Part shown: one piece after another, positions 5,446-14,434 of the stretch
How the letters are laid out: each line of letters starts with the position of its first letter
How positions within the stretch are numbered: the stretch's first letter is position 1
DNA from: a virus
Lineage: Duplodnaviria > Heunggongvirae > Uroviricota > Caudoviricetes
DNA: 14,606 bases
Direction: 5' to 3' (one strand)
Virus record (IMG/VR): IMGVR_UViG_2703718848_000009
Notes under the pieces: generated by a model
Told to the model about the DNA's origin: nothing
The model's database searches: none
The model's input: the letters and a program-made list of their open reading frames with translations, nothing else
Program-made: the position numbers and the translations under genes

Positions 5446-5733
5446 TTACTGACTACAATTGTTCTTTTTTTGGTATTTCCTGAATGCCTCACCATTGGGC
5501 TGATGTAATCCCATCCCGGCATGTGCCCGGCTGATGGTTTCGCGCATCTCCCCGAAATTATCCTGCCTTGCTGGTGGGCGTGCTGCCTTGTGGATACATT
5601 CCGCGCGACGTTTTGCCGCCTGTTCCCGTGCCTTGTCATCATTCGCCAGCATGATGACCTCAGCCCACCGCGCCGCCGCTCTCCGGTACAGACCACGCGC
5701 TTCCAGTGCTTCCGCTTTGCTGTCGTGAATCAT
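5446..5733 (-). CDS. PerC-family transcriptional activator-like protein
   Basis: KAEALEARGLYRRAAARWAEV matches the conserved PerC/Pch core as I recall it. AAGGAG Shine-Dalgarno upstream. Start overlaps the stop of the upstream ProQ-like gene (ATGA). Confidence 0.65.
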   Translation of the reverse strand: MIHDSKAEALEARGLYRRAAARWAEVIMLANDDKAREQAAKRRAECIHKAARPPARQDNFGEMRETISRAHAGMGLHQPNGEAFRKYQKKNNCSQ

Positions 5734-6272
5734 GCGCCTATTGTCTCCTTTGCTGCCCGGCGCTGGCGTTTGCGCTTCTCATTCAGCGCCACCAGCCGCG
5801 TTTCTGCGTCCTGTTGTTCCTGTGGTGTCACCTCGCCGCACGGCTGGCCTTTCAGGTCGTAGCGTACCCCACCAGCCATTAAGGCGCGGTAATAGTGCGG
5901 ACACTGCGCATAAGATGCCAGCGTCGCACGCAATGCCCCTGGCCCGAATGCCAGCCCCCTGACGGCGAGATCCTGCATCAGGTCGTCGAATATCCCCACC
6001 TTAAGCGGCTTCGGTGCTTCCCGGCTGAATAAGTCAGGCCACAACTCAGTGAGGCGGTTAACGCGCCTGCGGTTTTTGCGCTGGCGTTTGGTCATATGCC
6101 GCCACGGTGTCGCCCCTGTGGGCTTTTGCTGCGCTTTCTGGTTACCGGGCATCACTTTATGCGCCGATGTGGTTTTATCCTGCTCCTGCGCCGCCTGCGT
6201 CGTTTTCTGCGGCGTGCCGTAAATGCCTTTCGGTTTTCTGTTAATGGTCAGCTTAGTCATGCTTTGCCCCAT
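5730..6272 (-). CDS. ProQ/FinO-domain RNA-binding protein
   Basis: PKPLKVGIFDDLMQDLAVRG...LRATLASYAQCPHYYRALMAGGVRYDLKGQPCGEVTPQEQQDAETRL parallels the ProQ N-terminal FinO-like domain (recalled as ARPLKIGIFQDL...[35 protein letters not shown]). The true start may be the Met at 6260 rather than 6272. Confidence 0.75.
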   Translation of the reverse strand: MGQSMTKLTINRKPKGIYGTPQKTTQAAQEQDKTTSAHKVMPGNQKAQQKPTGATPWRHMTKRQRKNRRRVNRLTELWPDLFSREAPKPLKVGIFDDLMQDLAVRGLAFGPGALRATLASYAQCPHYYRALMAGGVRYDLKGQPCGEVTPQEQQDAETRLVALNEKRKRQRRAAKETIGA

Positions 6273-6594
6273 CGTTACAACTGTCTACCGATATAATTGT
6301 TTGATTTATTTAATGTTATTAACACATAACAAAAAAACAATCTGCAAACTGTCTACCAACTCTCTACAGTATTAATACATTGATAATTAATGACTTTTAC
6401 TAAATGGTAGACAGTGTAGATAGTTAAAAGAAAAATTTTAAAAATGAACCCATAACTATCTATTTTTAGATACCCCCGTGGTTTAGAAATATAAAATAAA
6501 CTGTCCACCTCTCTACCACATTAAAAATACCTATATAATTCAAAACATTAATTAGTAGATGGTTGGTAGAGGGTTAAGTGTATCTGTCTACCAA
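6273..6594. repeat. Iteron-like CTGTCTACC repeat array in AT-rich DNA, candidate replication origin downstream of the primase gene
   Basis: CTGTCTACC at 6281-6289, 6349-6357 and 6584-6592; inverted GGTAGACAG at 6407-6415; variants CTGTCCACC (6501), TCTCTACC (6510) and GGTAGAG (6565). Flanked by A/T runs. A 20-N gap follows at 6595-6614. Confidence 0.5.
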
Positions 6595-8391
6595 NNNNNN
6601 NNNNNNNNNNNNNNCTGGTAACCATCCATCAGCATCTTTATCTAACAGAACATTTGTGATCGTTCGCCCTTTATCTGGACCTTTAGTACATTTAGCCCGC
6701 TTGTACTCCTTTCCGTACTCAGCCATTGCCCCTGGCATATCTGTACCAAAGCGTGTCAGTGATACCGGTTTTCCCAGACCATGCGCAGACATATAAGCCA
6801 AATAAGCATGATACAGATATCGCCTCGGGCTAAATGGCACTATTTCTGCATTACCTACTATCATTCCCTCACATTTAACCAACGACATCAGATAACCGCA
6901 GAAGTCCACCAGCGAATCACCTTCACGCTTTATCAACAGTGCTTCTTCTGATTTTTGCTGCTCATAAAGTAGTCTTTTCGCTTCGTCCTGGTCGGCAAAT
7001 CGTGTAAGCAAATGGCGAATCACTACTGCCAGTTCCCCTTCTATCTTTTTCGCCAGCATCGGATCGCGTTCGTTCTCTGGTACAACCTCAGAGAAATTAA
7101 ATATTACTCGTCGACGCGAGATCCCCCCACTACGGTCGCTGAATGACATGGCATAATTGTTTACTACCAGCACTACCGCAGGAACGCGCGTGGAATAGGG
7201 CGCTTTGTGTTTCGGATCGATAGCCACCTTGTCACCGCCTGTAATGGCCTTAATCCCAGCACCATCACCTGCGTAGCGGGTCATGTCAGGCATGATAATC
7301 AGAGAATATCCCACCACTAACGCTCGTTCCCTCGCGTCTTCCAGCGCCTTCATGCTCGCCGATACTGTATTGGCCTTACCCGCCAGCATGGTACAAATCT
7401 CCGCCATCACACTTTTACCGCTTCCGCCCGGCCCCGTTACCTCAAGGAATAACTGCCAGTCGTACCGGTTCGCCAGTACCATGAATAATGCCGCCAGTAC
7501 GCGATCCGCTTTACGAGCATTATCCGCCACCGAACGACGCAACCACTTCCAGAAATTCGGCGCATGTGTTGCCAGCGTTTCCCCCTCTTCTGGCGGGCTG
7601 AACGGTAATTCACTGGCATTTAACAACCAGTCATTTTTGTTGTGTTCCCGAAAATTTCCTGTCCTGATATCAAAAACACCGTTACTGAACCCAATAAGAT
7701 TTCTGTCCGCTCCCCCCATAACAGGTAGACTCAATTTCATTGTCTCTACGGCAAATTTAATGGCGTTTTGCGAATAACTAATTTCGGCATCAATAAAAAT
7801 CTTCGCCATAGACCGCTGGAGTTCCTTATCAGATACAGGCTCCCAAACAATTCCGTTGTAATGGTGAACTACATCAGAATCATCATTTATCGCCAGTGCT
7901 CCTCCATAATGTTCAAGTAACACTTCCCCTCTCTGGCTGGCTCCCATCTGATTTAATGCAGGCTTGGGTAGACCACTATTTTTTGTAGCTAATTTCATCA
8001 CTGAAACTTCCCCGTGCTCAGCCTGTTCGCGGATCCGTTGCAGGTAGTCGCGCCAGTTCTCCGGTTCCTGGTCGGTGATACCTTTGTATAATTTCGCCTC
8101 CTGTACGCCAGCCAGCGCCAGCTTTTCAGCGATAGTATTGATCTGGATTGGCTCTATCTCCCCCGCGATATAGACACGCGCAAAACGGCGTTTCTCGTCA
8201 ATAATGCGGATATTCGCCAGGTCTGCCAGTTGCTTTGGCCCCAGGTAAACAGGAGGCACGTTATCGCCGTGTTTTCGTCCTTCACTTTCAATCCAGTGTT
8301 GAGCATGGGCGTAAGCATCCGTCCCGGCAAAAATGATTACCTCAGTGAATTTATCCTTCGGCTGATATTTTAGACTCGGTGCGTTTTTCAC
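6574..8391 (-). CDS. Phage/plasmid primase, P4-family (alpha-like) with SF3-helicase-type P-loop NTPase domain
   Basis: 605-codon ORF. Walker A motif VTGPGGSGKS and a downstream Walker B-like hydrophobic-acidic stretch (LIIMPDM). The C-terminus is interrupted by the N-run at 6595-6614 (X residues in the translation), so the 3' end is uncertain. Confidence 0.85.
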   Translation of the reverse strand: MKNAPSLKYQPKDKFTEVIIFAGTDAYAHAQHWIESEGRKHGDNVPPVYLGPKQLADLANIRIIDEKRRFARVYIAGEIEPIQINTIAEKLALAGVQEAKLYKGITDQEPENWRDYLQRIREQAEHGEVSVMKLATKNSGLPKPALNQMGASQRGEVLLEHYGGALAINDDSDVVHHYNGIVWEPVSDKELQRSMAKIFIDAEISYSQNAIKFAVETMKLSLPVMGGADRNLIGFSNGVFDIRTGNFREHNKNDWLLNASELPFSPPEEGETLATHAPNFWKWLRRSVADNARKADRVLAALFMVLANRYDWQLFLEVTGPGGSGKSVMAEICTMLAGKANTVSASMKALEDARERALVVGYSLIIMPDMTRYAGDGAGIKAITGGDKVAIDPKHKAPYSTRVPAVVLVVNNYAMSFSDRSGGISRRRVIFNFSEVVPENERDPMLAKKIEGELAVVIRHLLTRFADQDEAKRLLYEQQKSEEALLIKREGDSLVDFCGYLMSLVKCEGMIVGNAEIVPFSPRRYLYHAYLAYMSAHGLGKPVSLTRFGTDMPGAMAEYGKEYKRAKCTKGPDKGRTITNVLLDKDADGWLPXXXXXXXLVDRYT

Positions 8392-9467: not shown

Positions 9468-9684
9468 GGTGCACCTCCTGCACATCAGCCATGATAATTT
9501 TTCCGGCCTTATCCAGTGCCTGATCGGCTTTTAGCTGCACAAATGCTAAATAATGGGAGATGCATTCTGATTCTCTGGCTGCGTGTTTATGCGCCACACC
9601 AGCGATAGCAGAAATCTCAATAAGTGAATCCATCAGCGTTTTGATAGCGTCTACCGCTGCATCAGGCCATGTTGCATTACACAT
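9460..9684 (-). CDS. Hypothetical protein (74 aa)
   Basis: ORF with 8-nt overlaps on both sides within the operon. Confidence 0.45.
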   Translation of the reverse strand: MCNATWPDAAVDAIKTLMDSLIEISAIAGVAHKHAARESECISHYLAFVQLKADQALDKAGKIIMADVQEVHHA

Positions 9685-9880
9685 GTTCCACCTCCTGGCG
9701 AATACGGGCGGCGAATACCATCACGCAGCCATCAGGAGATTGCTGGCGTGCTTCCTGTTCGCTGGTGGCCTCGATGTGAATTACGCGCGGTTGTGCCGTG
9801 CTCAGGGCGATAAAACGCCAGATGTATTTATTCAGGTTGTGCGAGTCCCGCCCTTGCGGGTGTGTGGTATGATTTCTCAT
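9677..9880 (-). CDS. Hypothetical protein (67 aa), probable first gene of the replication operon
   Basis: ATG at 9880 preceded by GAGGT Shine-Dalgarno (5-nt spacing). It is the in-frame C-terminal part of the 435-codon ORF, but has its own RBS and lies just downstream of the operator palindromes. Confidence 0.45.
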   Translation of the reverse strand: MRNHTTHPQGRDSHNLNKYIWRFIALSTAQPRVIHIEATSEQEARQQSPDGCVMVFAARIRQEVEHV

Positions 9881-10984
9881 AGCTACCTCGATACTCTTGC
9901 TATCGTTGGTGGTTAGACGCCCTGCATGTGTGCCACCACTGCGGGGCGTTGTCGTTTCTGCACCTTGCATCAACAAGGTGTTGAACACCAATTTAAGCCC
10001 AGGTGTTAAACACGTCAAGTGTTGAACACTTATTTTTTTTCCTGCATACTGCATTTGTTTTTTGTAAGGGGTACACAACATGGCGACAAAAGCAGTAAAC
10101 GCAAAATCACAAACAGTTGCGGCAAGGGTTCCGCATGAAGTTATGAACAATGTTGAGGCGGTAAAAATGCCTGGTGAAAGTACAGGGCAGTTTGTAACAG
10201 CAGCATTAAAGCGAGAAGTTGAATACCGCCAGCGCCGCAAGGCCAAAGAACAGGAGTAACCATCACCAGCGCCGTGGTGTGAGGAACTACGGTGCATCGT
10301 TTTACAGGGCTGCGCCATGACCAACAAAGAATCAACCAATACACCATCACCGGCACGGAAAAGACAGCGCAGAAAGATAGCGTACGAGCATGAGTCAAAC
10401 AGATTCGCGCCCTGTGCGTTTATCCTTGAGAAATTCCTTAAAGAGTACAGGCGCACAAAAATGGGGTCGCATACCTGGAAAACATCGCGGCATGGCAATG
10501 TTAAAGAGCAGGAATAGCCCACCAGCAAGCCAGCATATTCACCATAATGACCCTCAGTTAAACATAGAGTCATTGGTGCAAAGCTGACACATTGCCCACC
10601 AGCCGCAAATCTGGCATTGTTGGCGATGCGTTCAAGTATGTAGCTTTCCCACTGGCGGCCCTCTGCGGTCGCCTTTGTTTTATCCAGAACGAAATCAGAC
10701 ATCAGATTGATCAGCACCTGGCGACCTGACAAAATCGCATCAGTCGCGCCACCAGCAAAATTTTTTGCTTTCCGGACAGTGTGACCAACGACATTTTGCA
10801 GCAAAATATTCTGCATTTCTGGCGTGCTGTAGTAACGGTGATCAGCGCCTTCACTCTGTGCGACCACAACGCTATAATCTGCCTCGTAGACAGTAAGCAA
10901 TATGGCGCAGTAGGCTATTCGTTCACAAAGGCGCTCCGGCAACGGGGCGCTTTCTCTTTTTGTAACGGTCAGAGCGTTACACAT
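9677..10984 (-). CDS. Uninterrupted 435-codon ORF; only the N-terminal ~140 residues look protein-like. Probably a real ~140-aa hypothetical protein whose stop is missing or shifted, running on antisense to the RHH gene
   Basis: ATG at 10984 overlaps the stop of the antirepressor-like gene (translational coupling). Residues 1-~140 have ordinary composition; the remainder is Cys/Ser/Thr/Arg-rich and low-complexity and lies opposite the plus-strand RHH gene and operators. Confidence 0.35.
   Translation of the reverse strand: MCNALTVTKRESAPLPERLCERIAYCAILLTVYEADYSVVVAQSEGADHRYYSTPEMQNILLQNVVGHTVRKAKNFAGGATDAILSGRQVLINLMSDFVLDKTKATAEGRQWESYILERIANNARFAAGGQCVSFAPMTLCLTEGHYGEYAGLLVGYSCSLTLPCRDVFQVCDPIFVRLYSLRNFSRINAQGANLFDSCSYAIFLRCLFRAGDGVLVDSLLVMAQPCKTMHRSSSHHGAGDGYSCSLALRRWRYSTSRFNAAVTNCPVLSPGIFTASTLFITSCGTLAATVCDFAFTAFVAMLCTPYKKQMQYAGKKISVQHLTCLTPGLKLVFNTLLMQGAETTTPRSGGTHAGRLTTNDSKSIEVAMRNHTTHPQGRDSHNLNKYIWRFIALSTAQPRVIHIEATSEQEARQQSPDGCVMVFAARIRQEVEHV
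9961..10031. promoter_or_regulatory. Cluster of GTGTT-N-AACAC palindromic operators in a divergent promoter region
   Basis: Perfect palindromes GGTGTTGAACACC (9977-9989) and AGTGTTGAACACT (10018-10030), imperfect GGTGTTAAACAC (10002-10013), plus inverted repeat CACCTTG...CAAGGTG (9961-9980). Followed by a T8 tract and the RBS of the plus-strand ribbon-helix-helix gene. Confidence 0.5.
10080..10259 (+). CDS. Ribbon-helix-helix (CopG/Arc-like) transcriptional regulator, 59 aa; not in the supplied ORF track (below its length cut-off)
   Basis: ATG at 10080 with AAGGGG Shine-Dalgarno 7-8 nt upstream; TAA at 10257-10259. Translation MATKAVNAKSQTVAARVPHEVMNNVEAVKMPGESTGQFVTAALKREVEYRQRRKAKEQE shows the classic RHH pattern (beta-strand TVAARVP, helix, G-x-S loop, helix FVTAAL). 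Palindromic operators immediately upstream. Confidence 0.55.
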   Translation: MATKAVNAKSQTVAARVPHEVMNNVEAVKMPGESTGQFVTAALKREVEYRQRRKAKEQE

Positions 10985-11768
10985 GGCTGTTTTCCTCCAT
11001 GCGACGGGCTAACCAACGCTGCGAAAGACGAATTAATTCAGCCTTCCGCTGGTGGTAGTCCTGGCCTAACTCAATCAGCGTGATATTGCTCTGCTCAAGG
11101 TAAGAAAGGTGCTCAAGCTGCAACGTGCTCATGTGGTCGCGTGGTTCGCCTGTAATGCCGTTCGCCAGTGCCCACTGTTTTGCAGTCATGCCACCCAGCA
11201 CGATACGCGCCAGCATGTTCGCTTCCGTGGTGTAGTGGTGCTGGAGTGTGTTTTTACCCAGTTCAGCCCGGTACGCCTCCAGCGCGGCACACATTGGCTT
11301 AAAGTAGCTGGCAACTGTGATACGGGCTTTCAGTTCCCGGCGTAACGCTGCGGAACGAACAGGCGCAACCTTGTGTAGCTCCTCCTCGCATTTGATAAAG
11401 TACTGGCGAACGGCGCGGCCCTGTTCGGTACGTTCGACCATCGCCAGTTCTTTCGCCATGTTCACTGTGATGATGTACTCAAGAGCGGTTTGCTGGCGAG
11501 ATTTTGCGCTCACCGGATCGGGTCGGCTCAAATATTCAACAACCTCATAATCCACGCCTTCCGTGAACCCGTATTCTTCAATGNNCCACGAACGGAAAAC
11601 GCGCCCTACACCTAACGCCTTATGTAACGCTCTGGCGCTAACAATAGTGGTTTCACTCCCGCCAATAACGCCGGAAATAATCGGGATAATTTCGCCGAAA
11701 TTTTGCAGATTCTGGTTTTCAGGCCGAACGAAGCCCCGCCCCTGTACGGGCGTTTTTGGAAATTTCAT
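10977..11768 (-). CDS. Phage-associated protein, possibly antirepressor/Bro-N-like DNA-binding protein (function uncertain)
   Basis: 263-codon ORF directly downstream of alpA. Contains ALHKALGVGRVFRSW, reminiscent of phage antirepressor N-terminal domains. One residue is masked by NN at 11584-11585. Confidence 0.6.
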   Translation of the reverse strand: MKFPKTPVQGRGFVRPENQNLQNFGEIIPIISGVIGGSETTIVSARALHKALGVGRVFRSWXIEEYGFTEGVDYEVVEYLSRPDPVSAKSRQQTALEYIITVNMAKELAMVERTEQGRAVRQYFIKCEEELHKVAPVRSAALRRELKARITVASYFKPMCAALEAYRAELGKNTLQHHYTTEANMLARIVLGGMTAKQWALANGITGEPRDHMSTLQLEHLSYLEQSNITLIELGQDYHQRKAELIRLSQRWLARRMEENSHV

Positions 11769-11845: not shown

Positions 11846-12043
11846 TCAGGTAGCTGTTCCGCGTGATTCCGCAATACGCTGATTAATCCACTCGTCAATT
11901 TCACTCTCAACGAAAGCAATAGCTCGCGAGCCAATTTTAACTGATGCAGGAAATTTACCTTGCCCCATAAGGCGATAAATCCATGCCTTGCTATATCCAG
12001 TTCTACGCTGAACTTCTGTTAAACGAATAAGCGTATTTGACAT
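11846..12043 (-). CDS. alpA: AlpA-family phage transcriptional regulator (HTH)
   Basis: MSNTLIRLTEVQRRTGYSKAWIYRLMGQGKFPASVKIGSRAIAFVESEIDEWI matches the AlpA consensus (L.RL.EV...TG.S...IYRL...G.FP..VK.G.R...W.ESEI.EWI). GAGGT Shine-Dalgarno 7 nt upstream. Confidence 0.85.
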   Translation of the reverse strand: MSNTLIRLTEVQRRTGYSKAWIYRLMGQGKFPASVKIGSRAIAFVESEIDEWINQRIAESRGTAT

Positions 12044-13163: not shown

Positions 13164-14378
13164 TCACCCGCATTTTCCGAACTCACCATGCACCACATTT
13201 CCGCCATGCTCGAGCGAATCCATATAATCAGCGTACCACTGAAGCATTTCCCGCCGCCCATCCAGATATTGCGCATGGTTGTATGTGCCACGAATTGAGT
13301 TTTTATCGACGTGCGCAAGCTGTGTCTCTATCCACGCGGTGTTATAGCCCTGCTCATGCAAAATGGTGCTCATAGTGTGCCGGAAGCCATGACCAGTAAC
13401 CTTTCCGTTATAGCCGATGCGTTTAAATACTTGGTTTATGCTAGCCTCGCTCATTGTTTTCCTTGGATCATTACGGCCGGGAAACATAAGCGGATAATTG
13501 CCAGTTAGTTCTTTAATCTGCCCAATAAGCGAAAGAGCCTGCTCAGACAAAGGCACTACATGAGGGCGACGCATTTTCATCCGTGAAGCAGGTATCTCCC
13601 AGATAGCCTTGTTGAGATCGATTTCATCCCATAATGCACCGCGCAGTTCGCCAGTCCGCAAACCGGTGATAATCAGTAAACGAGCCGCCATAACAACCAA
13701 TGCACTTCCTGAGTAACTGGACAATGCCTTGAAAAAATCAGGTAATTCTTTGGCTGTGAGGAAAGGATAATGATTAGATTCATGACCTTGCATCGCGCTG
13801 GTGAGATCCGGTGCAGGGTTATACTCAGCACGTCCAGTGACAATTGCATAGCGGAAAACTTCCCCACATCGCTGCCTCACTTTTTTGGCTTTTTCGGTAG
13901 CACCGCGCCCCTCGATGCGCCGCAGCACATTCAGCAGTTCAAGTGGTTTGATTTCGGCGATTGGTTTTTTGCCAATGTAAGGGAACACATCTTTGTTGAA
14001 GGCTTCGAGGATGTCTGAAGCATAACCAGCAGACCATTTTTTTAATTTGCTGCTGTGCCACTCAAGGGCAATATCTTTGAAGGTGTTGTTTAACTGCGTT
14101 TCCCGGGCAATCTTTTCCTCTCGTTTCGCTTCCATCGGATCGATACCCCCAGCGATACCCCTTTTAGCTTCTTCACGTTTTGCACGAGCATCAGCCAAGG
14201 TAACTTCAGGATACACACCTAGTGCTAACAGCTTCTCTTTACCAGCTACACGATACTTGAAGCGCCAATATTTTCCTCCACTAGGTTTTACCAAGAGATA
14301 CAGACCACCACCATCAGCCAGCTTGTAAGCCTTCTCTTTTGGCTTGGCAGTGTCTATTTGACGGGCATTGAGTTTCAC
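13164..14378 (-). CDS. int: Tyrosine recombinase, P4-type integrase
   Basis: 404 aa. N-terminal MKLNARQIDTAKPKEKAYKLADGGGLYLLVKPSGGKYWRFKYR is the typical P4-integrase N-terminus. Catalytic-domain residues R..HxxR..Y are present (GLRTGELRGALW, GHGFRHT, RGTYNHAQY). GTG start with GGAGG Shine-Dalgarno. Adjacent to the tRNA-derived att core. Confidence 0.9.
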   Translation of the reverse strand: MKLNARQIDTAKPKEKAYKLADGGGLYLLVKPSGGKYWRFKYRVAGKEKLLALGVYPEVTLADARAKREEAKRGIAGGIDPMEAKREEKIARETQLNNTFKDIALEWHSSKLKKWSAGYASDILEAFNKDVFPYIGKKPIAEIKPLELLNVLRRIEGRGATEKAKKVRQRCGEVFRYAIVTGRAEYNPAPDLTSAMQGHESNHYPFLTAKELPDFFKALSSYSGSALVVMAARLLIITGLRTGELRGALWDEIDLNKAIWEIPASRMKMRRPHVVPLSEQALSLIGQIKELTGNYPLMFPGRNDPRKTMSEASINQVFKRIGYNGKVTGHGFRHTMSTILHEQGYNTAWIETQLAHVDKNSIRGTYNHAQYLDGRREMLQWYADYMDSLEHGGNVVHGEFGKCG

Positions 14379-14380
14379 TT

Positions 14381-14434
14381 GGGGGTACCTCCACTAAACC
14401 GAACAGCAAATACCCCCAAAAGTACCCCCAATTG
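14381..14434. promoter_or_regulatory. TACCCCC motif cluster between int and att (putative arm-type binding sites), counterpart of 153-177
   Basis: GGGGGTA (inverted) at 14381-14387; atacccccaaaagtaccccca at 14410-14430. Confidence 0.35.

Follow-up and report, generated by a model that had tools for sequence, protein, structure and literature searches.

A repeat array 3' of rep as the probable origin of replication in a PICI-type satellite at a tRNA-Thr gene

Introduction

In Gram-negative PICIs, the region 3' of rep consists of iterons that flank A+T-rich DNA (Fillol-Salom et al. 2018, PMC6092414). For EcCICFT073, the PICI of E. coli CFT073, a plasmid with pri and ori was kept at the restrictive temperature, and its Δori and Δpri versions were impaired (PMC6092414). 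The Reps of SaPIs, which load themselves as helicases, use a C-terminal winged helix to bind repeats immediately downstream of rep, and the repeats of the SaPI origin are placed around an A+T-rich centre (PMC9371898). In P4, the "ori type 1 repeats" (TGTTCACC) are annotated in both ori and crr. Directly 3' of alpha is crr, which acts in cis as a helper site and is not the start point (GenBank NC_001609).

Here we analyse a stretch of 14,606 nt from a Caudoviricetes record (IMGVR_UViG_2703718848_000009), referred to as the window. A sequence-only reading had noticed short repeats in AT-rich DNA next to a putative primase gene and had suggested a replication origin. We compare this locus with its relatives in Enterobacterales and with the systems described above.

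Results

The window holds a PICI-type satellite

The window is a PICI-type satellite of ~14.5 kb. Every annotated gene lies on the - strand; the order is integrase, alpA, an AntA-like gene, a 435-aa ORF, small ORFs, a DUF4222 gene, rep and the array; past the array come a ProQ/FinO-domain gene, perC and unknowns, including one with a weak small-terminase/HTH match (Table 1). The element thus has the int, alpA and rep genes, the single transcription direction and the length (~10-15 kb) expected of a PICI, with no matches to capsid, tail or lysis genes, and its gene content and organisation agree with the description of Gram-negative PICIs (PMC6092414). No sid, psu or delta gene is recognisable in the element. 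As seen in a complete genome, the integration site lies between the proA-adjacent tRNA-Thr gene and the pao genes. Att-like repeats are found ~14.5 kb apart at the tRNA-Thr gene; the window ends inside this gene, and a degenerate copy of the tRNA 3' part is present near the opposite end. EcCIMP1, which occupies the same tRNA-Thr/proA site, was considered as the identity of the element and rejected, as it has a different primase (Toprim + DUF927) and different cargo.

Besides the Icd-like family, the end of the 435-aa ORF matches a phage "transcriptional repressor" family, and the relative L001 has an Icd-like pseudogene and a YlcI/YnfO gene in this region instead. The ProQ/FinO-domain product is an RNA-binding protein. 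In four genomes (H1-H4), among them L002 (2060-2840; NZ_CP173591), IS1A is inserted at the start of the ProQ-like gene, 9 nt into the ORF and with a 9-bp target duplication (GTCATGCTT), and thus lies between the gene and the origin region. The closest matches of the window (99.7%) are these four genomes, but the window has no IS1 at that site.

Table 1. Positions of the array, its surroundings and selected genes in the window
Feature	Positions	Strand	Remark
Whole candidate origin, ProQ/FinO-like gene start to masked rep 3' end	6261-6614		70% A+T
Single exact repeat CTGTCTACC	6281-6289	+	
A+T-rich spacer, 81% A+T, candidate unwinding region	6290-6348		Holds one of the least stable 40-mers of 2 kb scanned
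Repeat pair, 11-bp spacing: CTGTCTACC exact (6349-6357), CTCTCTACA (6360-6368)	6349-6368	+	
A+T-rich spacer, 84% A+T, direct pair on one side, inverted pair on the other	6369-6405		
Inverted repeat pair: CTGTCTACC exact (6406-6414), CTATCTACA (6415-6423)	6406-6423	-	
Central A+T-rich spacer, 78% A+T, with GATACCCCC copy (6469-6477)	6425-6500		
Repeat pair: CTGTCCACC (6501-6509), CTCTCTACC (6509-6517)	6501-6517	+	
A+T-rich spacer, 86% A+T	6518-6553		Holds least stable 40-mer of 2 kb scanned
Inverted repeat pair, 11-bp spacing: CCATCTACT (6554-6562), CCCTCTACC (6565-6573)	6554-6573	-	
Exact repeat CTGTCTACC, first of pair; partner (CCGTCTACT in relatives) under N-run	6584-6592	+	
Run of 20 N	6595-6614		Equals 65 nt in intact relatives
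Winged-helix origin-binding domain, Rep residues 491-592	6616-6921	-	Inferred repeat reader
rep, visible part, residues 1-592 of 601	6616-8391	-	Annotated "DNA primase family protein"
perC (PerC-family regulator)	5446-5733	-	After ProQ/FinO-domain gene
ProQ/FinO-domain gene	5730-6260	-	Immediately downstream of origin
435-aa ORF	9677-10984	-	Last 50-90 residues match Icd-like cell-division inhibitor family
alpA	11846-12043	-	
P4-type integrase	13164-14378	-	

Rep resembles the helicase and origin-binding parts of P4 alpha

Domain searches place D5_N at residues 156-285 of Rep, a DUF5906/SF3 helicase at 319-427 and Pox_D5 at 490-567. In a comparison with solved structures, the origin-binding domain of P4 alpha (1KA8) is matched by residues 491-592 (E 1.1e-18), and 7OLA, the self-loading helicase PriRep of SaPI5 (PMC9371898), by residues 232-434 (E 2.7e-8). 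Rep therefore has the SF3 helicase core and C-terminal winged helix of a PICI Rep. Neither Zn_Ribbon_Prim nor Toprim is matched by this Rep or by that of EcCICFT073, even at E values up to 1, whereas P4 alpha matches both in the same search. The N-terminal 125 residues are predicted to form a small alpha/beta fold (AlphaFold, pLDDT ~90 over residues 20-120). A decayed Toprim domain was considered for this part; the best Foldseek match in the PDB (E 0.02, to unrelated enzymes) is not significant.

By domain content, Rep corresponds to the C-terminal two-thirds of alpha, that is, to its helicase and origin binder, and the "DNA primase" of this island family is a predicted origin-binding helicase without recognisable primase domains. 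The array had been placed immediately 3' of a primase gene. The position holds, as the nearest repeat is 27 nt from the stop codon in intact relatives, but the gene product is an SF3 helicase in which no primase domains are found, so that "primase-dependent" replication should read "Rep/helicase-dependent".

Rep relatives come in two lengths, ~600 aa (PICI type, including the window) and 790-846 aa (the length of P4 alpha). Listed in this connection are L015 (Enterobacter hormaechei), a long-form locus that has repeats of the TCTAC class described below and an origin-binding domain resembling that of the window, and the Xenorhabdus/Photorhabdus loci L035-L082. In some relatives rep is frameshifted.

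The array is intergenic

According to the sequence-only reading, the last iteron overlaps the C-terminus of the primase. This overlap is an artefact: the ORF at 6574-8391 reads through a run of 20 N. Intact E. coli relatives are 99% identical to the window on either side of the gap, and the Rep of the relative is identical at 590 of 592 residues up to it. In place of the Ns, these relatives have 65 nt that comprise the repeat CCGTCTACT, a 27-nt spacer, the true rep stop and the last nine codons (...GWLPATAGINDRT*). A repeat and the stop codon of rep are therefore masked by the run, which gives the false ORF end at 6574, and the array is wholly intergenic. The window has three N-runs in total; the other two are of 2 N each (2244-2245 and 11584-11585).

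The array consists mostly of repeat pairs in both orientations

At least four exact copies of the 9-mer CTGTCTACC, one of them inverted, had been reported. We find four: the + strand has copies at 6281, 6349 and 6584, and the - strand has one at 6406. The one-mismatch variants claimed alongside are present as CTGTCCACC and CTCTCTACC (6501-6509 and 6509-6517). With up to one mismatch allowed, CTGTCTACC has nine matches in the window, six of which lie within 6281-6592. Dinucleotide-preserving shuffles of the window (n = 200) gave an expectation of 1.67 ± 1.22 such matches, and none of the 200 reached nine. Four degenerate copies retain a TC[T/C]AC core (6360-6368 and, on the - strand, 6415-6423, 6554-6562 and 6565-6573). 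Counting these, ten repeats are visible, six on the + strand and four on the - strand, with an eleventh masked by the N-run; the intact relative L001 has 12. A looser 7-mer pattern matches nine times per 350 bp in the array, compared with a maximum of two (mean 0.24) in the rest of the window, showing that the window has a single repeat cluster.

The repeats are mostly paired, with starts 8-11 bp apart within a pair and pairs in both orientations, and the array is better described in these terms than as single 9-mers. At 6279-6289 the window has one 11-bp AACTGTCTACC unit, and all eight relatives compared have a tandem AACTGTCTACC AACTGTCTACC there.

Repeat groups flank A+T-rich spacers

The AT-rich setting noted earlier is borne out, with 70% A+T at 6261-6595 versus 55% for the whole window. 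Four spacers of 78-86% A+T are each flanked by repeat groups, and in a 2-kb scan of an intact relative all six of the least stable 40-mers fell in the origin intergenic region. An imperfect palindrome lies at the central spacer (arms 6417-6426 and 6453-6462). Repeat sets around A+T-rich DNA agree with the two-set scheme of PICIs, although the arrangement here is more elaborate. The equivalent region of L001 is 381 bp long.

Other motifs in the region are sparse. No perfect DnaA box was found in it, only a single match with one mismatch, and GATC is absent from it. Two perfect matches to the IHF consensus are unremarkable for DNA of 70-85% A+T, and the three promoter-like matches are not above chance (1.9 ± 1.4 in shuffles). 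The scan detected no terminator-like site on the coding strand in the interval from rep to the ProQ-like gene. This suggests that transcription probably runs through the origin, and that the ProQ/FinO gene and perC are probably co-transcribed with rep.

The motif GATACCCCC had been described as common to the array and both att-proximal regions. Exact copies at 6469-6477 in the origin and at 153, 165 and 14142 near the element ends confirm this, and copies with one mismatch occur at 14154, 14381 (-) and 14409. The 12-bp units of this type are arranged in tandem pairs (151-174, 14140-14163, 14380-14391 on the - strand and 14408-14431), near both element ends and over the int start codon. As the annotated P4 attP arm repeats (ATGCCCCC units) are likewise tandem and over the int start, the end-located units are probably, by analogy, integrase arm-type sites. 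The origin copy reads GATCCCCCC in L002 and TATACCCCC, with the first base changed, in other relatives, so only its ATACCCCC core is retained.

Repeat class tracks the C-terminal domain of Rep in Enterobacterales

A scan of one genome per species yielded 80 loci that encode Rep relatives in Enterobacterales, from Escherichia to Xenorhabdus. Repeated 8-mers are present within 500 nt 3' of the gene at all 80 loci, and 77 of the 80 have at least four copies of one class in this interval (typically 5-12, with 0-2 copies of the other classes). The classes exclude each other, and 83 loci were classified as TCTAC (8, including the window type and CFT073), TTCAC (62, including P4), CTCCAC (6), GTCCRC (4) or unclear (3).

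Among pairs with helicase identity of at least 0.8, identity in the origin-binding domain is 91% within a class, compared to 71% between classes. Repeat class tracks the C-terminal domain of Rep and not the rest of the protein. Two Kluyvera loci illustrate this most clearly: L008 (K. ascorbata, TTCAC) and L010 (K. georgiana, TCTAC) are 93-100% identical over residues 1-510, beyond which identity is 73, 67 and 40% to the end, and DNA homology ends 111 nt before the stop. They form a natural domain-swap pair, in which the last 90 residues and the repeat classes differ and the layouts are otherwise parallel. Class-discriminating positions of the domain are concentrated at 535-540 and 564-578 and, in the close clade of the window, take in an insertion of five residues (PDKGR). 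P4 alpha has TTCAC-class residues at the discriminating positions.

The relation is not one-to-one, as the repeats of EcCICFT073 and L085 are of the TCTAC class although their domain has only 34% identity to that of the window and lacks the class-specific residues. In addition, since the origin-binding domain adjoins the repeats, their switching together could partly reflect linkage rather than functional matching.

Most relatives, whatever their class, have one layout of ~250 bp: two direct repeats, one inverted, three direct, three inverted, one direct and two inverted. The window-type layout, found in E. coli and E. ruysiae, is ~360 bp long with four A+T-rich spacers and a pair spacing of mostly 11 bp, versus 9 bp in most relatives. 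Read opposite to rep, the mid-array order of the window is direct pair, inverted pair, direct, inverted pair; comparing 6261-6614 with EcCICFT073 (L005, 13997-14284), this part resembles the usual layout of the relatives. Our impression from the orientation maps is that, in the lineage of the window, the origin may have been turned round with respect to rep.

Of 5426 complete E. coli genomes, 98 contain this version of the origin, with no feature annotated beneath it among the matches listed. In eight close variants, 8% of columns are variable in repeat cores versus 19% in spacers, a weak difference (p = 0.057), and taken as a whole the 9-mers show no higher conservation than the spacers. Several substitutions among the variants shift degenerate copies towards the consensus.

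Discussion

Judged from sequence comparisons, a PICI-type phage satellite integrated at a tRNA-Thr gene very probably has its replication origin in this array. The suggestion of an origin is supported by the position of the array 3' of an initiator with a P4-alpha-type domain, by the tested origin of EcCICFT073, which has the same 9-mer in the same position, by the arrays at all 80 relatives and by the way repeat class follows the C-terminal domain. For EcCICFT073, this kind of origin has already been documented, along with its position and even the repeat sequence.

We infer that Rep of the window binds the repeats of the window, and we place the start of melting and the source of primers in the same way. 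Helper-phage induction would lead to expression of the rightward operon (alpA ... rep). Rep, as a self-loading SF3 helicase, would recognise the 9-bp repeats (consensus CTGTCTACC, core TCTAC) through its C-terminal winged helix. The closely spaced pairs in both orientations would set Rep multimers on both sides of several spacers of 78-86% A+T, and, given the homology of Rep to P4 alpha and to the Reps of SaPIs, these multimers may melt a spacer and load as helicase rings. As Rep has no recognisable primase domain, priming would probably be left to the host or helper.

Could the array instead be a crr-like helper site, bound by Rep, while replication starts from another site in the element? 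The P4 cluster immediately 3' of alpha is crr and not ori, and the origin-binding domains of Rep and alpha are homologous. However, the 14.6-kb window spans the whole element and has no second cluster (at most two versus nine matches per 350 bp), which makes this role very unlikely. The 120-bp direct repeats typical of crr are also absent from the array, and a fragment of EcCICFT073 with only the gene and this region sufficed (PMC6092414).

It is similarly improbable that the array serves chiefly in transcriptional control of the ProQ/FinO-perC operon, with the repeats as operators for a regulator or for Rep as an autoregulator. Plasmid iterons often double as operators, the array is directly upstream of the ProQ-like gene (its nearest repeat is 21 nt from the start codon), and two weak promoter-like matches on the coding strand take repeat sequence as their -35 element. 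However, such matches are no more frequent than in shuffles, and repeat class follows the C-terminal domain of Rep while the downstream genes differ at the same repeat (ProQ/FinO here, SSB-like in CFT073). Furthermore, the equivalent region of CFT073 is required for replication (PMC6092414). A regulatory role may coexist with origin function. A chance or decayed, functionless cluster in an A+T-rich spacer, to which the degenerate copies, the 11-bp unit kept by relatives and missing here, and the frameshifted rep of some relatives might point, is excluded for practical purposes by the shuffle statistics and by conservation, namely an arrangement kept in 98 E. coli genomes and E. ruysiae, with substitutions moving degenerate copies towards the consensus, and analogous arrays at every relative scanned.

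Reading the array as an origin assigns a function to a 380-bp stretch that is free of annotation in every listed record among the 98 complete E. coli genomes. Together, repeat class and the wing of the C-terminal domain would give a simple sequence rule for predicting satellites with a common replication specificity, of relevance to satellite incompatibility and to the engineering of PICI or P4 vectors. A more tentative idea, possible but one we do not lean towards, is that the C-terminal domain of Rep and the array move jointly as a swappable specificity cassette among PICI- and P4-type satellites of Enterobacterales. There are at least four exclusive classes, and the wing region of the domain (PDKGR and flanking residues in the clade of the window) would be their main determinant. 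Our literature search found no description of a cassette of domain and repeats. If the idea is true, cassette classes define which co-resident satellites cross-activate or interfere in replication, and the class common to the window and EcCICFT073, despite 34% domain identity, predicts cross-replication between otherwise unrelated islands.

Among known systems, the origins of iteron plasmids (RepA, pi, TrfA) have direct iterons of 17-22 bp, DnaA boxes and an initiator without helicase activity. The window differs in each respect, with units of 9-11 bp in both orientations, no perfect DnaA box in the origin region and an SF3 helicase as initiator. SaPI origins are more similar: they lie directly downstream of rep, with 6-12 short opposed repeats, A+T-rich DNA and an SF3 Rep. 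However, SaPI repeats are 5-6 nt long around a single central A+T-rich region, compared with 9-11-nt units in five or six groups and four spacers here, and sequence similarity between the Reps is confined to the helicase core.

The proposed likeness to the P4 ori/crr arrangement stands in part. P4 alpha and Rep have homologous origin-binding domains (1KA8), and the cluster is 3' of the gene, as crr is. The two-part arrangement does not carry over: P4 has two clusters 4.7 kb apart, with crr a pair of 120-bp direct repeats, whereas the window has a single PICI-type cluster, in which no long direct repeats of that kind were found. Alpha also has zinc-ribbon and Toprim primase domains, both lacking from Rep. 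The window repeat shares CTGT..ACC with P4 CTGTTCACC and differs at the two central positions (TC versus CT). Most Rep relatives use the exact P4 octamer TGTTCACC, and its class is the commonest (TTCAC, 62 of 83 loci); the window and L001 have no copies of this class and 11 of the TCTAC class.

Like other PICI origins, the array lies immediately 3' of the rep ORF and has multiple short repeats in both orientations, and the likeness to EcCICFT073 goes further. That island has int and alpA, no virion genes and a Rep with the same domain make-up (584 aa; identity 43% over the full length, 34% across the origin-binding domain), and it shares the order DUF4222 gene, rep, origin and, further downstream, perC. 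Its 288-bp origin region, beyond which perC is three genes away, contains ~11 CTGTCTACC-type repeats in both orientations immediately 3' of rep. The two differ in the gene next to the origin (SSB-like in EcCICFT073, ProQ/FinO in the window) and in layout: the EcCICFT073 array is ~230 bp long with tandem copies 9 bp apart, as in most relatives, while that of the window (~360 bp, mostly 11-bp spacing) is more A+T-rich and has a different order of orientations. We conclude that, of the known systems, the PICI origin comes closest, and in particular the one of EcCICFT073, and that P4 crr is a positional and evolutionary relative.
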